From contig JBDRKL010000009.1 of the NCBI GenBank assembly GCA_043814055.1, positions 17,751 through 81,750 of the forward strand: DNA of 64,000 bases, in the 5' to 3' direction. A program made the translations under genes and the position numbers. Numbering within the stretch: position 1 is the stretch's first letter; each line of letters starts with the position of its first letter. This document shows positions 9,511 to 41,190 of the stretch, in pieces. A model generated the notes under the pieces. It was not told where the DNA came from, did not search any database, and was given only the letters and a program-made list of their open reading frames with translations. Source of the DNA: an archaeon (GTDB lineage: Archaea; Undinarchaeota; Undinarchaeia; Undinarchaeales; JBDRKL01).

Positions 9511-9869
9511 TCTCCGGCTGCTCCCGGAGGGTGAGCGGAGGCATTCGCATCCGGCGAAGCCGCTTTATTATCTCCTTTTTCCTTAGGCGCACCTTCGTGC
9601 GCTGCTTCTTTTTCCCTGACTGAGGTGCCTTCTGCTTTTAACATCCCTTTCTTTGCCTTTGCCGGCAGAACTTTCTTTGCTTCTGGCTTGAACTCCTCAA
9701 CTTTCTCAATCTTTATTTGAGCTCGCTTTATCCCGTGATTTGAGCCAACCAATGAATAGACCTTGTCAAGCGCGCGTGCTTCTTTAAGTTCGGTAACTTC
9801 CTTGGTAAAAATCTGCTTATTTCCACGCTGTACAAAACTTCCTATGATTCTAAAATGTTTAACACTCAT
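9507..9869 (-). CDS. rpl18a: 50S ribosomal protein eL20 (L18Ae/LX) with C-terminal extension
   Basis: FTKEV...ALDKVYSLVGSNHGIKRAQIKIEKVEE signature; position upstream of pfdA. Confidence 0.92.
   Translation of the reverse strand: MSVKHFRIIGSFVQRGNKQIFTKEVTELKEARALDKVYSLVGSNHGIKRAQIKIEKVEEFKPEAKKVLPAKAKKGMLKAEGTSVREKEAAHEGAPKEKGDNKAASPDANASAHPPGAAGE
9511..9563 (-). repeat. REP-like double-hairpin element, copy 2 (in-frame 3' end of rpl18a)
   Basis: Encodes AASPDANASAHPPGAAGE; same two-hairpin architecture as copy 1. Confidence 0.85.
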
Positions 9870-9946
9870 TTTGAATTTTCCTCCACTTCATCAGCTTTAA
9901 AATAAACACGAAGCTGATTGACCTGCGTTATTGCTTTGCGTCTCAT
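9866..9946 (-). promoter_or_regulatory. Bridging mini-ORF/hairpin cassette A (26 codons) between rpl31e and rpl18a
   Basis: ATG 5 nt after the rpl31e stop; TGA overlaps the rpl18a ATG (ATGA); contains CAAAGC...CAGCTTCGTGTTTATTTTAAAGCTG. Confidence 0.6.
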
Positions 9947-9951
9947 TATAT

Positions 9952-10491
9952 TTACCTGAGCTTGATCACTGCTCTGCCGTTTTCATCTTCGCCAATCACA
10001 ACTCGAAGCTGATATGGCGGTTTCTTGCGGCCGCGCTCCCAGATTTTCTCGTTTACTTCCTTTGTGATTACGACTTTGTCCGCCTTGGTGTGCTTCTTTG
10101 CGAACGCCTTGAGCATAGAAATTGTGTATCGCGCTTTCTTGCCCCTTACTGCGTTATTCCTAAGCGGGATTGTGTAAAGGTGGTCAGTGCCCTTGAGCCT
10201 GGTTGGCTTGACATTCTTCGGCGCAGCCTTGGATTCCTTGAGCTCGCTGATGGTGTCCATTGCGCGCTCCACAACCGTGCCCTTCTTCTTTGGCTGCGGC
10301 TTTGCCTTTGCCTCTTTCTTATCCTTGACTGCTGGCTCTTCCTTTGAGGCAGCCTTTGGCTTAGCCTTCTCTTCTTCTGCCGCTGCAGACTGACGCTTCG
10401 CGTCAGTTGCACGCTTGACTTCGTCAAGCTGTGCCTCTGCCTGAGCTTCTTTCAGAATTTCATCTTCTACACTTGCTTTATCTTTAGCCAT
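9952..10491 (-). CDS. rpl31e: 50S ribosomal protein eL31 with long N-terminal extension
   Basis: LYTIPLR...VNEKIWERGRKKPP signature in the C-terminal half. Confidence 0.92.
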   Translation of the reverse strand: MAKDKASVEDEILKEAQAEAQLDEVKRATDAKRQSAAAEEEKAKPKAASKEEPAVKDKKEAKAKPQPKKKGTVVERAMDTISELKESKAAPKNVKPTRLKGTDHLYTIPLRNNAVRGKKARYTISMLKAFAKKHTKADKVVITKEVNEKIWERGRKKPPYQLRVVIGEDENGRAVIKLR

Positions 10492-10492
10492 T

Positions 10493-10612
10493 TCAAAGTC
10501 TCCTAATCTTCATCTGCTTTGAAACTTCGGACGCGGGGCGTCCGAGGCACACACACTTCGTGTGTGATGTGCAGACGAAGCTGAAATTATTTAACATGCT
10601 TTGTCTCGTCAT
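10493..10612 (-). promoter_or_regulatory. Bridging mini-ORF/hairpin cassette B (39 codons, with two extra hairpins) between rpl39e and rpl31e
   Basis: ATG 2 nt after the rpl39e stop; TGA-A-ATG junction with rpl31e; peptide MTRQSMLNNFSFVCTSHTKCVCLGRPASEVSKQMKIRRL. Confidence 0.6.
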
Positions 10613-18941: not shown

Positions 18942-20264
18942 TTATCCACGCAGCTCTTTCATATGGTCAATGCGCTTCTGCACCAGCTCTGGCTTGCCAA
19001 TGTCAGGCCTGTAGAACAATTTGTCGCACTGCACGGATGAGATTGCAGACTCTGCGATTTTCTCAGCTTCTTCAATCGTGTCTGCGAAGCCTGTGATTCC
19101 AAATGAGCGCGATGTGCTTGTGTAAAGCTCGCCATCTTTCAGGTCAACTGAGGCGTAGTAGAGCTTTGCGCCGAGCCGCGTGATTTCTTCCTCGTCAATT
19201 GAGACCTTTGCGCCTGACTCAGGGCTCTCAGGGTAGCCTGTTGGGACAAGGTACTTGCAGACCGAGGCAAGATTTTCAAACTCAATAACTTTTGGCAAAC
19301 TACCCTCAAGCATTGACTGGCACAGGAAGCTGAAATCGGTCTTGAGTAATGGGAGAATGTTCATCGCTTCCGGGTCGCCGAAGCGCACGTTGTATTCAAT
19401 AATTTTTGGTCCGTCCTTTGTGAGCATAAACTGCCCGTAGAGAACGCCCTTGTAAATTGTTCCGGTTCTTTTCTTCAGCGCAGCGATTGTGCGCTTCATA
19501 ATGTCAAGCGCTTCGTCAACATCTTTCTGCTCAAGAAAAGGCAATAGGTGATTTGCGTCAGAGTATGAGCCCATTCCGCCTGTCATCGGTCCTGTGTCGC
19601 CCTCGTGCGCCTGCTTGTGGTCCTGCACAAGTGGAAGCGGAACAACTTCTGTGCCGTCTGTGAAAACATGGAGCGTGAACTCCTCCCCAACGAGTTTTTC
19701 CTCAATTACCACAACGCCTGAGCCGCCAATTTGGTTCTCAACAACCTCAAGCGCGTAGTCCCGCGCCTCATACAAGTCCCTGAGCTGCTGACCCATGACC
19801 TTGACGCCCTTGCCGCCGGTGAGCCCTGCGGGCTTGATGACTATTTCTGTGTCAAATTCCTGAATCGCTTTGAGAACATCCTCGCGGTTGGAGCACACGC
19901 GGAACTTGGGGTAGCCGCCGTCAAGATGCTCCTGCATCAGGTCGCGGCAGAACGCCTTGTCAGACTCAAGCCGGGCTGCAGCGCTTGTCGGACCAACCAC
20001 GCCAAAGCCGTTCTTCTGCAATTCATCCCCAACGCCTTTAGCAAGCGGGTCCTCAGGGCCGATGAAAATGTAGTCAGGCTTCACGTGGAGCGCGTATTTC
20101 AAAACTGCTTTTGAATTATTAATGTCGCCGAGTTCGTGACCTTTTGCAAGCGCCATTATGCCAGGGTTGCGGGCCTTCATAAACGCGTAGAGCTCTGAGC
20201 CCTTTGCCATCTGCTCAGCAAGCGCGTGTTCACGCGCTCCGTTGCCTATTAGGAGGGATTTCAA
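18942..20264 (-). CDS. purD: Phosphoribosylamine-glycine ligase
   Basis: GNGAREHAL, GGKGV, QDHK, GPMTGGMG, RFGDPE; TTG start. Confidence 0.97.
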   Translation of the reverse strand: MKSLLIGNGAREHALAEQMAKGSELYAFMKARNPGIMALAKGHELGDINNSKAVLKYALHVKPDYIFIGPEDPLAKGVGDELQKNGFGVVGPTSAAARLESDKAFCRDLMQEHLDGGYPKFRVCSNREDVLKAIQEFDTEIVIKPAGLTGGKGVKVMGQQLRDLYEARDYALEVVENQIGGSGVVVIEEKLVGEEFTLHVFTDGTEVVPLPLVQDHKQAHEGDTGPMTGGMGSYSDANHLLPFLEQKDVDEALDIMKRTIAALKKRTGTIYKGVLYGQFMLTKDGPKIIEYNVRFGDPEAMNILPLLKTDFSFLCQSMLEGSLPKVIEFENLASVCKYLVPTGYPESPESGAKVSIDEEEITRLGAKLYYASVDLKDGELYTSTSRSFGITGFADTIEEAEKIAESAISSVQCDKLFYRPDIGKPELVQKRIDHMKELRG

Positions 20265-20335
20265 AGCTTCACCGCCCTTAACAGCTTTGAAATAAACGCG
20301 AAGCTGTATAACAAATTTCTTGCTTTGCGTTTCAC
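20261..20335 (-). promoter_or_regulatory. Bridging mini-ORF/hairpin cassette C (24 codons) between purF and purD
   Basis: GTG 1 nt after the purF stop; TGA overlaps the purD TTG; ATTTCAAAGCT/AGCTTTGAAAT 11-bp inverted repeat covers the start codon. Confidence 0.62.
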
Positions 20336-32284: not shown

Positions 32285-32373
32285 GTCGGGGTGGCACAAC
32301 CTGGTACTGCGTAGGGTTGCTAACCCTATTGGACGTAAGTCCTTCGCGAGTTCAAATCTCGTCCCCGACGCCA
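32285..32373 (+). tRNA. tRNA-Ser(GCT)
   Basis: Acceptor GTCGGGG/CCCCGAC; anticodon arm TAGGG-TTGCTAA-CCCTA; long variable arm; encoded CCA. Confidence 0.96.
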
Positions 32374-32947: not shown

Positions 32948-33095
32948 GGGCCCGTGGTCTAGTGGCTATGACGTCTCCCTTACAACCCTTTTGCTTCGCA
33001 AAAGCGTTGACGGAAAAGAAACCGTCTTCGCGGCGATTGGAGCACGAGGGAAAGAACGGAGAAGTTCACAGGTTCGACTCCTGTTGGGCCCACCA
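32948..33095 (+). tRNA. tRNA-Val(TAC) with 72-nt intron (32985-33056)
   Basis: Acceptor GGGCCCG/TGGGCCC; anticodon stem TCTCC/GGAGA; intron at 37/38 in a relaxed BHB; encoded CCA. Confidence 0.9.
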
Positions 33096-33741: not shown

Positions 33742-34015
33742 GGTACAGGCTAGGCCGGGAGAGTAGCAGTCTCCCTTTCTCAAATCTGCTTTAGGAGGGC
33801 TGAATGCCGGTGTGAGTTGCAGTATTGGGGGAGTCGTCTTGGGCTCTGGCGTCGAAGCCTCGTCCTGCGGGACTGACTGCCCTGCTAACCGGGTCAGATG
33901 GGGAACCAAGCAGCCCTACACAGGGCGCGTTGGTGCTCGCGGGTTCGCGGGGTGGAGCCTCTGCTCAAGGTCAGCGGCTTTCTTAGTATTGCAGCGAGCT
34001 CCGGATGCCTGTGCC
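33742..34015 (+). ncRNA. ffs: Archaeal SRP (7S) RNA
   Basis: Ends pair (GGTACAGGC/GCCTGTGCC); Alu-like CTAGGCCGGG start; helix 8 GGGTCAGATGG-GGAA-CCAAGCAGCCC. Confidence 0.9.
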
Positions 34016-34131: not shown

Positions 34132-35031
34132 TTAAATTTCTTCCAAAGTCGCACAATACTTGCAAATTTTAGCAGGAGTTCTTTCTCCGCACTCTGGGCA
34201 GTTGTTCAATTTGGGATTGTCAAACTTGCCCTCAAGCAATGGCATAAGATTGTTAACGCCCTTGAGAATCTGGAACTTTGTACCAGGGTGCGCTGCCTCT
34301 AATTCATTGAGCTTGTTCCTGATTGAGCAGCGCAGGGACTGCTGGACATATGGGCACTCGTCGTTGTGGAATGGAAAACCCTGCACGATTGTGTACAACC
34401 CAATTTCCTTTTCAGGCACTTCGCGTAGCGGCTTCACGCGCGGCACATAGCCCTTTTGAGTTGGAGTTTTTGCACCAATGCGGGACATTCTTGCGAAGTC
34501 CCCGCGGAAATAATTCATCACTGTGCTCTGCACTTCATCGTCCAAATTGTGCCCTGTTGCGACAACATCAGCTTTTAATTCTTTCGCCGCGTTGTTCATG
34601 ATTCGCCTGCGGATTACGCCGCAGTAGGTGCACGGAATTTTGTCGCCCTTCTTCGCAATCTGATCCATTGTCTTCCCGACTTCGTCCTTGAAATTGTAAA
34701 TCACTGCAGGCACGTCAAGCTCTTCAAAATTCTTAATCGCGATTTTGACACTTTCGTCACGGTAGCCCTTGATGCCCTCGTCAACCACAATGCCTGTGAG
34801 CCTGAGTGGCATTTGCTTTGCGAACTTGTGCATAAACCTGAGCAGTGTGACTGAGTCCTTGCCGCCGGAGATGCCCATCACAACGTGGTCGTTGCGTTTG
34901 AAAAGTTTGTTCTTGCTGATGTTCTTTCTGATTCTGTCATCGGTCAATTTGATAAAATGGTCTGTGCAGAGCTTGCGATTCATATAGCGCAGGTAGGCCA
35001 CGGCTTTCTTGGAACAGCGGTCGCATTTCAT
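34132..35031 (-). CDS. tRNA 2-thiolation protein (TtuA/Ncs6 family)
   Basis: N- and C-terminal zinc fingers, SGGKDS, CTYCGVIRR, TGHNLDDE, CPY. Confidence 0.93.
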   Translation of the reverse strand: MKCDRCSKKAVAYLRYMNRKLCTDHFIKLTDDRIRKNISKNKLFKRNDHVVMGISGGKDSVTLLRFMHKFAKQMPLRLTGIVVDEGIKGYRDESVKIAIKNFEELDVPAVIYNFKDEVGKTMDQIAKKGDKIPCTYCGVIRRRIMNNAAKELKADVVATGHNLDDEVQSTVMNYFRGDFARMSRIGAKTPTQKGYVPRVKPLREVPEKEIGLYTIVQGFPFHNDECPYVQQSLRCSIRNKLNELEAAHPGTKFQILKGVNNLMPLLEGKFDNPKLNNCPECGERTPAKICKYCATLEEI

Positions 35032-35090
35032 CTCGAAGCACCTCCGCTTTGAGATGAGCCCGGTCTCAAATTGCAAGGTCTGGGCCTCAT
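35028..35090 (-). promoter_or_regulatory. Bridging mini-ORF/hairpin cassette E (20 codons, diverged) between the SAMP and TtuA genes
   Basis: ATG 1 nt after the upstream stop; ATGA overlap with the TtuA start; ATCTCAAAGC-GGAGGT-GCTTCGAGAT stem encloses the RBS. Confidence 0.5.
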
Positions 35091-36993: not shown

Positions 36994-37094
36994 AGCCCCG
37001 TAGTGTAGCGGCCAAGCACTCCGGCCTTTGACCTGTGTTTGATAAAAACTCAGGAAGACAGCCGGTAACGGCAGTTCGAATCTGCCCGGGGCTA
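36994..37094 (+). tRNA. tRNA-Gln(TTG) with 28-nt intron (37032-37059)
   Basis: Acceptor AGCCCCG/CGGGGCT; anticodon stem CCGGC/GCCGG; BHB at 37/38. Confidence 0.93.
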
Positions 37095-40400: not shown

Positions 40401-40475
40401 ATGGCACAACAAAGCCTGACAAGGCACACCAGCTTTGTGTGGATTTCAAAGCTGGATAAAAAGGAGGAACTTTGA
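40401..40475 (+). promoter_or_regulatory. Mini-ORF/hairpin cassette D (24 codons) upstream of slyD
   Basis: MAQQSLTRHTSFVWISKLDKKEEL; TGA-A-ATG junction; ATTTCAAAG/CTTTGAAAT stem around GGAGG. Confidence 0.6.
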
Positions 40476-40476
40476 A

Positions 40477-41190
40477 ATGGCAGAAAAGATACAGGAAGGG
40501 GATTTCATCACAATAGATTACATTGGGCGTGTCAAGGACACGGGAATGATTTTTGACCTCACGAATGAGGAGATTGCGAAAAAGGAAGGCCTGAACACAG
40601 AGGGTACGGTTTACGGCCCTGTCACGGTTGTTGTAGGAGCTAGGCATGTTGTGCCTGGGCTTGACAAACAGCTCAGCTCGCTCAGCGTGGGGGAGAAGAA
40701 AAAGATTGACATTGAATCAGCTGATGCATTCGGCAGCAAGGACGCTGAACTCGTGAAGCTCGTTCCAATGAATGTTTTCAAGAGGCAGAAGGTGAACCCG
40801 ATTCCGGGAATGCCTGTTGAGCTTGAAAGGCAGAAGGGAATTGTGAAATCAGTGAGCGGCGGCCGCGTTAAAGTGGATTTCAATCACCCGCTTGCTGGAA
40901 AAACACTGGAATATGAGGTTGAGGTCAAGGGAAAAATAATCAAGGCTGAGGAGCAGGTTAGAAGCATACTCAAACTGCACGTGCCAAGTGTTGAAATTAA
41001 GGACGTCAAGATAGCGGTTACGGAAAAAGAAGTTGAAATTAGCACGCCGAATGAGATGCAAACCAGAAGGTATATAAACCTAACAGAGGAAATAACTGCA
41101 CGAGATATACTTAAGTACGTCAAGGGGGCAAATCGCGTGCGGTTTGTTGATGTATTTGAAAAGGGAGAATCTAATATTAAAAACTCTTAG
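40477..41190 (+). CDS. slyD: Long-type FKBP peptidyl-prolyl isomerase
   Basis: DYIGRVKDTG, GGRVKVDFNHPLAGKTL. Confidence 0.93.
   Translation: MAEKIQEGDFITIDYIGRVKDTGMIFDLTNEEIAKKEGLNTEGTVYGPVTVVVGARHVVPGLDKQLSSLSVGEKKKIDIESADAFGSKDAELVKLVPMNVFKRQKVNPIPGMPVELERQKGIVKSVSGGRVKVDFNHPLAGKTLEYEVEVKGKIIKAEEQVRSILKLHVPSVEIKDVKIAVTEKEVEISTPNEMQTRRYINLTEEITARDILKYVKGANRVRFVDVFEKGESNIKNS

Follow-up and report, generated by a model that had tools for sequence, protein, structure and literature searches.

In a 64,000-nucleotide stretch of archaeal DNA (GenBank assembly GCA_043814055.1, contig JBDRKL010000009.1, positions 17,751 to 81,750; hereafter the window), we found five copies of a short structured repeat, each situated at the start of the gene that follows it. 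Judged from sequence, the element is probably an inserted, dispersed, lineage-specific repeat that occupies start codons and is tolerated there through termination-reinitiation on a small open reading frame (mini-ORF) of its own. Its position, orientation, anatomy and open frames are established directly from the DNA, as are the stop/start overlaps, the conserved pairing, and the element-free junctions of relatives. The window corresponds to G000:C9:17751-81750, G000 being the assembly under study (979,685 bp in 14 contigs, archaeal, 82% complete); contig coordinates given below without a genome refer to this assembly, and plain positions refer to the window.

The core of the element, CAAAGC and CAGCTTYG separated by 10 to 20 nucleotides, matches five times in the window against 0.03 matches expected from shuffles, a count that none of 100 shuffles reached. 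Four of these matches are sense copies, designated A to D, in agreement with a preliminary reading of the letters alone (the sequence-only reading), which had described a core common to A to D and sense to the downstream gene; the fifth is the palindromic reflection of copy C. A genome-wide census by nhmmer, by regular expressions and by R1, a covariance model derived from 11 copies, agrees on 34 loci in 0.98 Mb, and the family is thus far beyond chance. R1 gave 34 matches at E ≤ 0.01, which are spread over 8 of the 14 contigs and represent 31 loci (there are two tandem dimers and one element split by insertion), as well as three further loci at E = 0.018 to 0.029. One of the latter is copy B, in which an insertion disrupts the element. 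All 34 copies are sense to the downstream ORF, and each ends on its start. The census found no copies away from gene starts, and the remaining matches are antisense reflections of the same loci, as the element is partly palindromic. Its length is normally ~79 nucleotides, with a range of 59 to 137 nucleotides in copies that have deletions, nested hairpins or dimers. The flanks of the copies are unrelated, and in pairwise comparison the copies share a median identity of 67%; the copy preceding spt4 and that preceding a PFOR beta-like gene are 98% identical over 133 nucleotides at unlinked loci with unrelated flanks.

A typical ~79-nucleotide copy is built of two hairpins. Hairpin 1 begins at the 5' end with ATG(A)GACRCAAAGC, followed by a loop of 14 to 16 nucleotides and GCTTYGYGTTYAT. 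Hairpin 2 runs from TTCAAAGC through a purine-rich loop with GGAGG or GGTGA to (G/A)CTTTGAA-ATG, where the last ATG is the gene start. The Shine-Dalgarno (SD) motif inside the element lies ~10 nucleotides 5' of the gene ATG in nearly all copies. Copy D (40401 to 40479, + strand), located before an FKBP/SlyD-like gene, displays this arrangement. Its 5' ATG (40401-40403) is followed by hairpin 1 (40404 to 40441; 5' arm GCACAACAAAGC at 40404-40415, loop at 40416-40431, 3' arm GCTTTGTGTG at 40432-40441) and by hairpin 2 (40442 to 40479; 5' arm GATTTCAAAGC at 40442-40452), whose purine-rich loop holds an SD-like GGAGG at 40463-40467 and whose 3' arm CTTTGAAATG (40470-40479) includes the start codon of the gene (40477-40479). 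The mini-ORF of copy D (40401 to 40475, 24 amino acids) ends with TGA at 40473-40475, and a single A separates it from the gene ATG. ATGGCA is present at both ends of this copy.

The other four copies in the window lie on the minus strand. Copy A (9867 to 9946; 80.7 bits) connects rpl31e with rpl18ae/LX, with its 5' ATG at 9946-9944 and the gene ATG at 9869-9867; its mini-ORF (9866 to 9946, 26 amino acids) ends in an ATGA overlap (stop at 9868-9866), its hairpin 2 is degenerate, and its fold has a z score of +0.27. Copy B (10489 to 10612), between rpl39e and rpl31e, has its 5' ATG at 10612-10610 and the gene ATG at 10491-10489, a mini-ORF of 39 amino acids (10493 to 10612) that ends as TGA-A-ATG, and a fold z score of −4.63. 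It carries an in-frame, stop-free insertion of ~45 nucleotides (a 47-nucleotide stretch, ~10525-10571, was excised for analysis) with two extra GC-rich hairpins. A larger, related insertion was found in the copy before a 59-amino-acid ferredoxin gene at C12:143447-143560, and ACACACGAAGTGTGTGTG, a part of this type of insertion, recurs at C1:6863-6882. Copy C (20257 to 20335; 90.7 bits), between purF and purD, starts with GTG (20335-20333), and its 3' ATG has been mutated to ATC; the apparent purD start is a TTG (20264-20262) within CTTTGAAAT, overlapped by the TGA of the mini-ORF (20263-20261). Copy E (35029 to 35090), between a ThiS-family (SAMP) gene and ttuA, is strongly diverged, with both hairpins and a GGAGG in loop 2; its mini-ORF (35090 to 35028, 20 amino acids) ends in an ATGA overlap. 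It lacks the literal core and was found with a covariance model from other copies (E = 1.2e-4 genome-wide and 1.4e-5 in a second search). This match and the same two-hairpin layout uphold its earlier placement in the family. The five mini-ORFs had been located correctly by the sequence-only reading, as had their starts 1 to 5 nucleotides past the upstream stop (gaps of 5, 2, 1 and 1 nucleotides for A, B, C and E), and the flanking genes are as it had named them: L39e, L31e, L18Ae/LX, PurF, PurD, the ThiS-family protein (SAMP), TtuA, and the SlyD-like FKBP. We also found the frames to be those it had given: B, C and D read ..SFV/SFAFISK..L*, and A, in another frame, reads ..QLRVYFKADE...

The open frame extends well beyond the window copies. 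A 5' start codon is kept at 27 of the 34 loci (26 ATG and one GTG), and none of these 27 copies has an internal stop in the mini-ORF frame, against 71 and 41 stops when these stretches are read in the two remaining frames. Thirteen copies are in phase 1 relative to the gene, 14 in phase 2, and none in phase 0. The phase-1 copies end as TGA-A-ATG; among the phase-2 copies, the stop lies on the gene start as NTGA in 11, forms TGATG in one, and is located 7 and 16 nucleotides into the gene in the remaining two. Counted from the gene start, stops end at −1 in 13 copies, at +4 in 11, and at +1, +7 and +16 in one copy each. The distance from the 5' start to the gene start takes 11 different values (59 to 137 nucleotides), all in phase 1 or 2. 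Among them are copies with a 54-nucleotide nested hairpin and with a ~45-nucleotide insertion, neither of which brings a stop into the frame that is used, as well as a tandem dimer of 46 codons. Genes starting with NTGA follow 12 of the 14 phase-2 copies vs 4 of the 13 phase-1 copies (Fisher p = 0.006). The gene's own frame is closed by a stop 9 to 21 nucleotides upstream in 25 of 32 copies, and none of the 27 mini-ORFs is in frame with the gene. In composition-matched shuffles, the chance of openness was 0.03 to 0.51 per copy, with a joint product of 0.004 for the five most diverged single copies. As the two frames encode unrelated peptides, it is openness that is conserved and not the peptide. 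The 27 open copies support the earlier claim that openness and coupling rather than peptide are conserved, and with every copy sense at a gene start, neither random orientation nor stops at chance rates were seen.

Tandem dimers are present at two loci, C10:34926-35066 (+) and C7:65141-65288 (−). The internal junction of both reads GAAATCA instead of GAAATGA, and an internal start and a stop are both lost; removal of the stop by this ATC leaves a single 46-codon frame that spans the C10 dimer. Outside the window, a decayed copy before a TFB gene, C9:271-345 (+), has both ATGs changed to ATA and contains in-frame stops. Its hairpin 2 has an inverted stem, TTTTGAAAT/ATTTCAAAA, and the TFB gene starts 5 nucleotides further on.

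Several observations identify the 3' end of the element as the true gene start. The downstream ORFs of the 34 loci are 47 to 729 amino acids long, and 30 of them (26 of 30 plus 4 of 4) contain Pfam domains, which mostly begin at residues 1 to 20 (NDK at 2, PGK at 7, PyrI at 5, GARS_N at 1, TtuA_LIM_N at 2). GARS_N aligns from residue 1 of purD when the gene is read from its TTG; purD and the gene at C10:112156 start at a TTG in CTTTGAAAT because the ATG of the element is mutated. The N termini of L31e and LX in relatives (MAK.. and M.KF/NFK..G, respectively) align with the 3' ATG. The downstream genes are unrelated housekeeping genes and include those for aEF2, S28e, L31e, LX, TktN, TktC, topo VI A and B, PyrI, PurD, Ndk, PGK, SBDS, Spt4, RpoP, TFB, and Mnh subunits, among others.

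The 5' ATG, on the evidence of the junctions, is the site of the ancestral gene start. Among 30 copies analyzed at this edge, an upstream ORF on the same strand (counted if it had at least 60 codons) ends −4 to +9 nucleotides from the 5' codon in 22, with an ATGA overlap in 9, and an SD-like motif lies outside the repeat, upstream of the 5' codon, in 24. For C12:84960, an example of a copy before a first gene, inspection by eye shows a TATA-like box ~26 nucleotides upstream. In relatives of the same order (protein identities of 31 to 40% for L31e and 47 to 60% for TktC, and 72 to 78% for full-length Top6A matches), the orthologous junctions are short. In the four loci read for the ribosomal-protein genes, the L39e-L31e junction spans 6 to 12 nucleotides and the L31e-LX junction −4 to +10, both without an element; TktN-TktC is joined by ATGA in 5 of 9 relatives, with −1 and −10 in two and a different small ORF in two; Top6B-Top6A is element-free at −1 to +11 in 8 of 9. 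In G000, the 5' ATGA of the element overlaps the stop codons of TktN and Top6B, whose C-terminal residues resemble those of the relatives by eye. With the 5' start retained and the gene beginning at the 3' ATG, the repeat would lie between an old start and a restored new one. The comparison of orthologous junctions for empty sites, proposed in the sequence-only reading, thus gave short element-free junctions in the same order and no empty allele at close range. In two of these relatives, the TktN-TktC junction contains a different insert of 70 to 93 nucleotides (L156 from G009 and L157 from G001), which by eye encodes a small cysteine-rich peptide (CxxC...CxCC) of ~30 amino acids, its ATG overlapping the TktN stop as ATGA.

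Plain MAFFT alignment with RNAalifold recovered hairpin 2 only, because two 5' subtypes were misaligned; structure statistics were therefore taken from a covariance-model alignment of 41 matches, which is biased towards the structure of the model. In this alignment, 91% of cells are paired, compared with 22 to 47% when partners are slid, and 18 of the 20 pairs have changed on both sides, values that none of 500 shuffles reached. The helices of hairpin 1 (helices 1 and 2) are paired in 97% and 94% of cells with double changes in 9 of 9 pairs, and that of hairpin 2 (helix 3) in 87% with double changes in 9 of 11. Of the 41 rows, 34 have the A of the gene AUG paired within hairpin 2, and 33 the U. 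The very diverged copies C12:46200, C4:23508 and E keep the architecture with wholly different stem sequences (hairpin 2 stems CATCAACATCG/CGATGTTGATG in C12:46200 and TTTCGAAG/CTTCGAAA in C4:23508), and the hairpin 1 stem of C4:74362 is CAAACTGC/GCAGTTCG. Diverged copies with different stems are support for the hairpins that is independent of the model-fitted alignment. In single-sequence folds, hairpins 1 and 2 form the minimum-energy structure in 9 of 11 copies, with z scores from +0.27 (copy A) to −5.06. Counts of G-U and A-C cells, 35 vs 33, of which 28 C-A cells come from one doubtful loop-closing pair, are nearly equal, and we therefore make no claim on pairing as RNA rather than DNA.

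Other structures were considered. A three-way switch would need the 3' arm of hairpin 1 to pair instead with the 5' arm of hairpin 2; this alternative helix is paired in 74% of cells, with covariation not above shuffles (35 and 69 of 500). By inspection, we also rejected a bulge-helix-bulge intron (exon flanks are non-complementary), a C/D box or K-turn in loop 2 (UGAUGA is not kept among copies), and an intrinsic terminator past hairpin 1 (the T-run is interrupted). The motif AAATTTGTYAA in the loop of hairpin 1 seems to be reverse-complemented (TTRACAAAT) in 4 of 27 copies (C2:2940, C4:73698, C12:84960 and C7:66234), with 10 forward and 13 ambiguous; this faintly suggests flip inversions of a small hairpin.

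Based on these features, we propose how the element could be accommodated. It would have inserted precisely at a start codon, with the original start retained at its 5' edge, where it would now open a mini-ORF of 19 to 46 codons across the whole element; this start is an ATG that either follows an SD or overlaps the upstream stop as ATGA. The 3' end would bring both a new SD (GGAGG or GGTGA in loop 2) and a fresh ATG, by which the gene is restored. Ribosomes beginning at the old site, or coming from the upstream gene by coupling, would melt hairpins 1 and 2 as they translate the mini-ORF, terminate at a UGA 1 nucleotide before the gene AUG or overlapping it (AUGA), and reinitiate with the help of the internal SD. 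Through such reinitiation, an 80-nucleotide insertion would leave expression and operon coupling intact. The element may have spread by transposition or template switching that duplicated ATG(A) and sometimes additional bases. The sequence-only reading had suggested an element that preserves or regulates coupling; preservation is backed by the sequence tests described here, and only the conserved hairpins speak for regulation.

The ends of the element bear on its mobility. ATG, often ATGA, is present at both ends, and the bases past the 5' ATG match those past the gene ATG with a summed prefix of 35, compared with 20.3 ± 3.7 in permutations (p = 1e-4). A related element before rpl19e on an independent metagenome contig (L082) has a 13-nucleotide direct repeat, ATGAACACACAAA; its DNA-level match to G000 is confined to the element, and no rpl19e match was found in G000. 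The direct repeats look like variable-length target duplications or the products of a microhomology-guided copy event.

A number of observations weigh against insertion and tolerance by reinitiation. A direct repeat of at least 3 nucleotides beyond the ATG is present in only 6 of 26 copies, and Y1_Tnp (PF01797), TnpB (PF07282) and DDE_Tnp_1 (PF01609) gave no matches in the 82%-complete assembly, other transposase families not having been searched. The nearest genomes belong only to the same order, so the comparison of filled and empty sites spans an order. Seven of the 34 loci are without an intact 5' start (ATC, ATA or truncated), the C9:271 copy with its in-frame stops among them; genes can therefore do without the mini-ORF, and the SD inside the element may be enough. 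Openness is partly inherited from a consensus in which two frames are open, and the copies share ancestry and are not independent. Tolerance gives no reason for the pairing of both hairpins in very diverged copies, for which mobility through a structured single strand, mRNA stability or processing, or a regulatory role are candidates. In a groundwater metatranscriptome (X1), the one RNA run in which the organism was found, three short contigs are identical to its DNA and none of them covers an element, which is neutral on transcription.

Part of this evidence could be accommodated if the element were a domesticated regulatory leader, with hairpins and mini-ORF acting as a translational switch, attenuator or protein-binding RNA for ~34 housekeeping genes. 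Translation would then depend on upstream translation, temperature or a factor, and the AUG would stay within the stem of hairpin 2 until this was opened by a ribosome translating the mini-ORF. The compensatory changes that keep both hairpins, the retention of the architecture on wholly different stems in C12:46200, C4:23508 and E, and the pairing of the A and U of the gene AUG are as expected of such a leader. We nevertheless regard it as unlikely, since the downstream genes, from aEF2, ribosomal proteins and PurD to Tkt, topo VI, Mnh, PGK, Ndk and TFB, have no common theme, the peptide differs between the two frames and no leader peptide is conserved, and the helix that a three-way switch requires does not exceed shuffles. 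Moreover, 13 rows leave the G of the AUG without a pair, the fold of copy A does not surpass those of shuffles, and there is no Rfam family. Compensated stems can also stem from source copies needed for mobility, or from hairpin-templated repair.

Alternatively, the gene could be translated independently from the SD and ATG of the element, the open frame being a by-product of an A-rich, stop-poor consensus, and the hairpins could serve mobility (as single-stranded DNA ends) or mRNA stability and processing. The internal SD before the ATG in nearly all copies, the retention of the gene at the seven loci without a 5' start, and the openness of the other non-gene frame in 7 of 13 phase-1 copies would fit an inserted repeat with an incidental ORF. 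This explanation is likewise improbable, since the used frame is free of stops in all 27 copies and stops do close the other non-gene frame in 13 of 14 phase-2 copies. The frame is also kept in insertion-bearing copies and in the dimer, where the junction is ATC, not ATG(A), and the stop is removed; phase correlates with the fourth base of the gene, and no copy is in phase 0. Chance similarity or an assembly artefact can hardly be credited, being refuted by the five core matches in the window, by the 34 covariance-model matches at E ≤ 0.01 on 8 of 14 contigs, and by the same element on an independent metagenome contig. A further reading goes beyond insertion with tolerance: the element could be a portable, self-spreading translation-initiation module that this reduced archaeon now needs, its two selected RNA hairpins and frame-tolerant bridging ORF making initiation at ~34 core genes obligatorily dependent on upstream translation, or dependent on conditions. 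We consider this doubtful; if true, it would amount to a genome-wide layer of post-transcriptional control derived from a mobile element, independent of the repeats of mycobacteria discussed below.

BLAST of copy D against 40 relatives gave no matches outside G000, and the covariance model gave no convincing match in 12 other genomes of the order and 16 of the phylum; its sole match there, G011:C182 (E = 7e-4), lies in an AT-rich intergenic region between divergent genes and lacks the anatomy of the element. A metagenome scan gave at least one contig, L082, and no match to the element was found in plasmid and phage collections. A pattern scan of genome contigs returned 55 stretches, none archaeal and mostly single chance hairpins. 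Two rumen Lachnospiraceae metagenome-assembled genomes contain many copies of an unrelated multi-hairpin repeat of ~170 nucleotides that includes AATTTCAAAGCCCTTATACGTAAGGCTTTGAAATG (L028, L040, L041, L043, L055 and L061 in one; L048, L070, L072 and L077 in another; also L039, L044 and L080), and the one copy tested had no Rfam match. The same scan of viral contigs returned nine stretches, seven of which (L179-L181 and L183-L186, from IMG/VR) share a perfect palindromic hairpin resembling hairpin 2, CCATTTCAAAGC-TCATAGCCGGTGA-GCTTTGAAATG, with a stem equal to that of hairpin 2. We rejected these as unrelated: in L185, the sole contig read, no long ORF starts at the ATG of the hairpin, and the likeness is probably coincidental or the hairpin a terminator.

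A second small hairpin repeat, CACAATGAAAC(T/G)CCAGAGA...TTGCTGG(A/C)GATTCATTGTG, with compensatory changes, is nested in the main element at C11:6857-6910, C10:26419-26472 and C10:112075-112128. It stands alone, outside the window, at C12:9100-9153, C10:139290-139337 and C4:963-987, and one of these copies lies directly 3' of a tRNA-like 3' end. At gathering thresholds, Rfam found only signal recognition particle (SRP) RNA and tRNAs over the whole window, and a search of copies A, B and D in E-value mode gave nothing on the elements. The archaeal SRP RNA is at 33743-34014. The tRNA matches at 32948-33092 (+), 36994-37094 (+) and 32285-32370 (+) are 145, 101 and 86 nucleotides long, lengths that probably indicate introns or long variable arms.

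The sequence-only reading did not recognize the element as a described family. This stands as far as Rfam and archaea are concerned, since we found no archaeal equivalent in the literature searched; the kind of element is known from mycobacterial interspersed repetitive units (MIRUs). An archaeal family with a two-hairpin, SD-carrying, two-frame design appears to be undescribed. If insertion with reinitiation is correct, the element would be the first archaeal counterpart of the MIRU strategy, as far as the literature searched reaches, and would show that, by carrying a ribosome-binding site and a read-through mini-ORF, a selfish repeat can insert at the very base where a gene is most sensitive. 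Its 34 loci, two frames and two stop geometries would be natural, replicated evidence for termination-reinitiation in a DPANN-like archaeon, with tolerated spacings of −4 and +1 and never in frame. Gene callers may choose wrong starts at such loci, call spurious proteins of 20 to 45 amino acids, and miss TTG starts such as that of purD. The cassette could also be a ready-made bicistronic expression part for archaeal genetics.

Among known systems, leader-peptide attenuators of the ermC or cat type have a short ORF followed by a hairpin in which the start region of the gene is enclosed. The element differs from these in having no conserved peptide or stalling motif and an ORF that spans the structure to the gene start, and the helix between hairpins 1 and 2 is unsupported. 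Like MITEs (miniature inverted-repeat transposable elements), hairpin-ended derivatives of the insertion sequences IS200/IS605, and repetitive extragenic palindromic (REP) sequences, it is a short, structured, dispersed repeat of non-coding size; it has a hairpin close to each end and is flanked by short direct repeats. However, its terminal inverted repeat is only ~5 to 6 nucleotides (CAAAG/CTTTG), its direct repeat ATG(A) varies in length, the assembly yielded no parent insertion sequence and no transposase of the Y1, TnpB or DDE type, and a strict tie to start codons is not a trait of MITEs or REPs. Synthetic bicistronic-design cassettes and natural "delivery" ORFs, as described in PMC12548453, likewise have a short leader ORF running to the gene start with an SD inside, and depend on unfolding by ribosomes and reinitiation; these are engineered or confined to single loci, unlike a self-propagating repeat family. 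Rickettsia palindromic elements (RPEs), like other repeats that are fused to genes in frame, are also palindromic selfish repeats tolerated in or at coding regions by virtue of an open frame; according to PMC3184786, RPEs join the host protein, whereas none of the 27 mini-ORFs is in the gene frame.

The closest likeness is to MIRUs. According to the two sources, these are mobile repeats whose insertion takes place at start codons, with an ORF coupled at −4 nucleotides (PMC12548453), and they are 40 to 100 bp long and present in 40 to 50 copies, with polycistronic transcription, empty and filled sites, direct repeats of four nucleotides, inverted repeats inside the unit, and an ORF whose ends overlap adjacent genes (PMC3184786). 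Spacings of −4 and −1 are given as the commonest coupled junctions in bacteria and archaea, and coupling of Haloferax gene pairs as declining beyond a spacing of ~30 to 40 nucleotides (PMC12548453). On these descriptions, MIRUs and the archaeal element are both dispersed repeats of 40 to 100 bp in tens of copies, located within operons in sense orientation, with internal inverted repeats, tandem copies, and ORF ends overlapping flanking stop and start codons. The copies described here are dispersed and sense at gene starts, and the ends of their ORFs overlap or abut the flanking stop and start. Features of the archaeal element only, as far as the MIRU descriptions go, are its definite fold of two hairpins, the second with an SD in its loop, its two frames, and its two stop configurations (UGA-A-AUG and NUGA). 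For the element, filled and empty sites could be set side by side only across an order and not between sister species. The hosts belong to different domains of life, homology is not expected, and the likeness rests on the published descriptions of MIRUs. As the MIRU traits that could be tested are shared and the host is an archaeon, we place the element as an analogue of the MIRUs and not as a member of their family.

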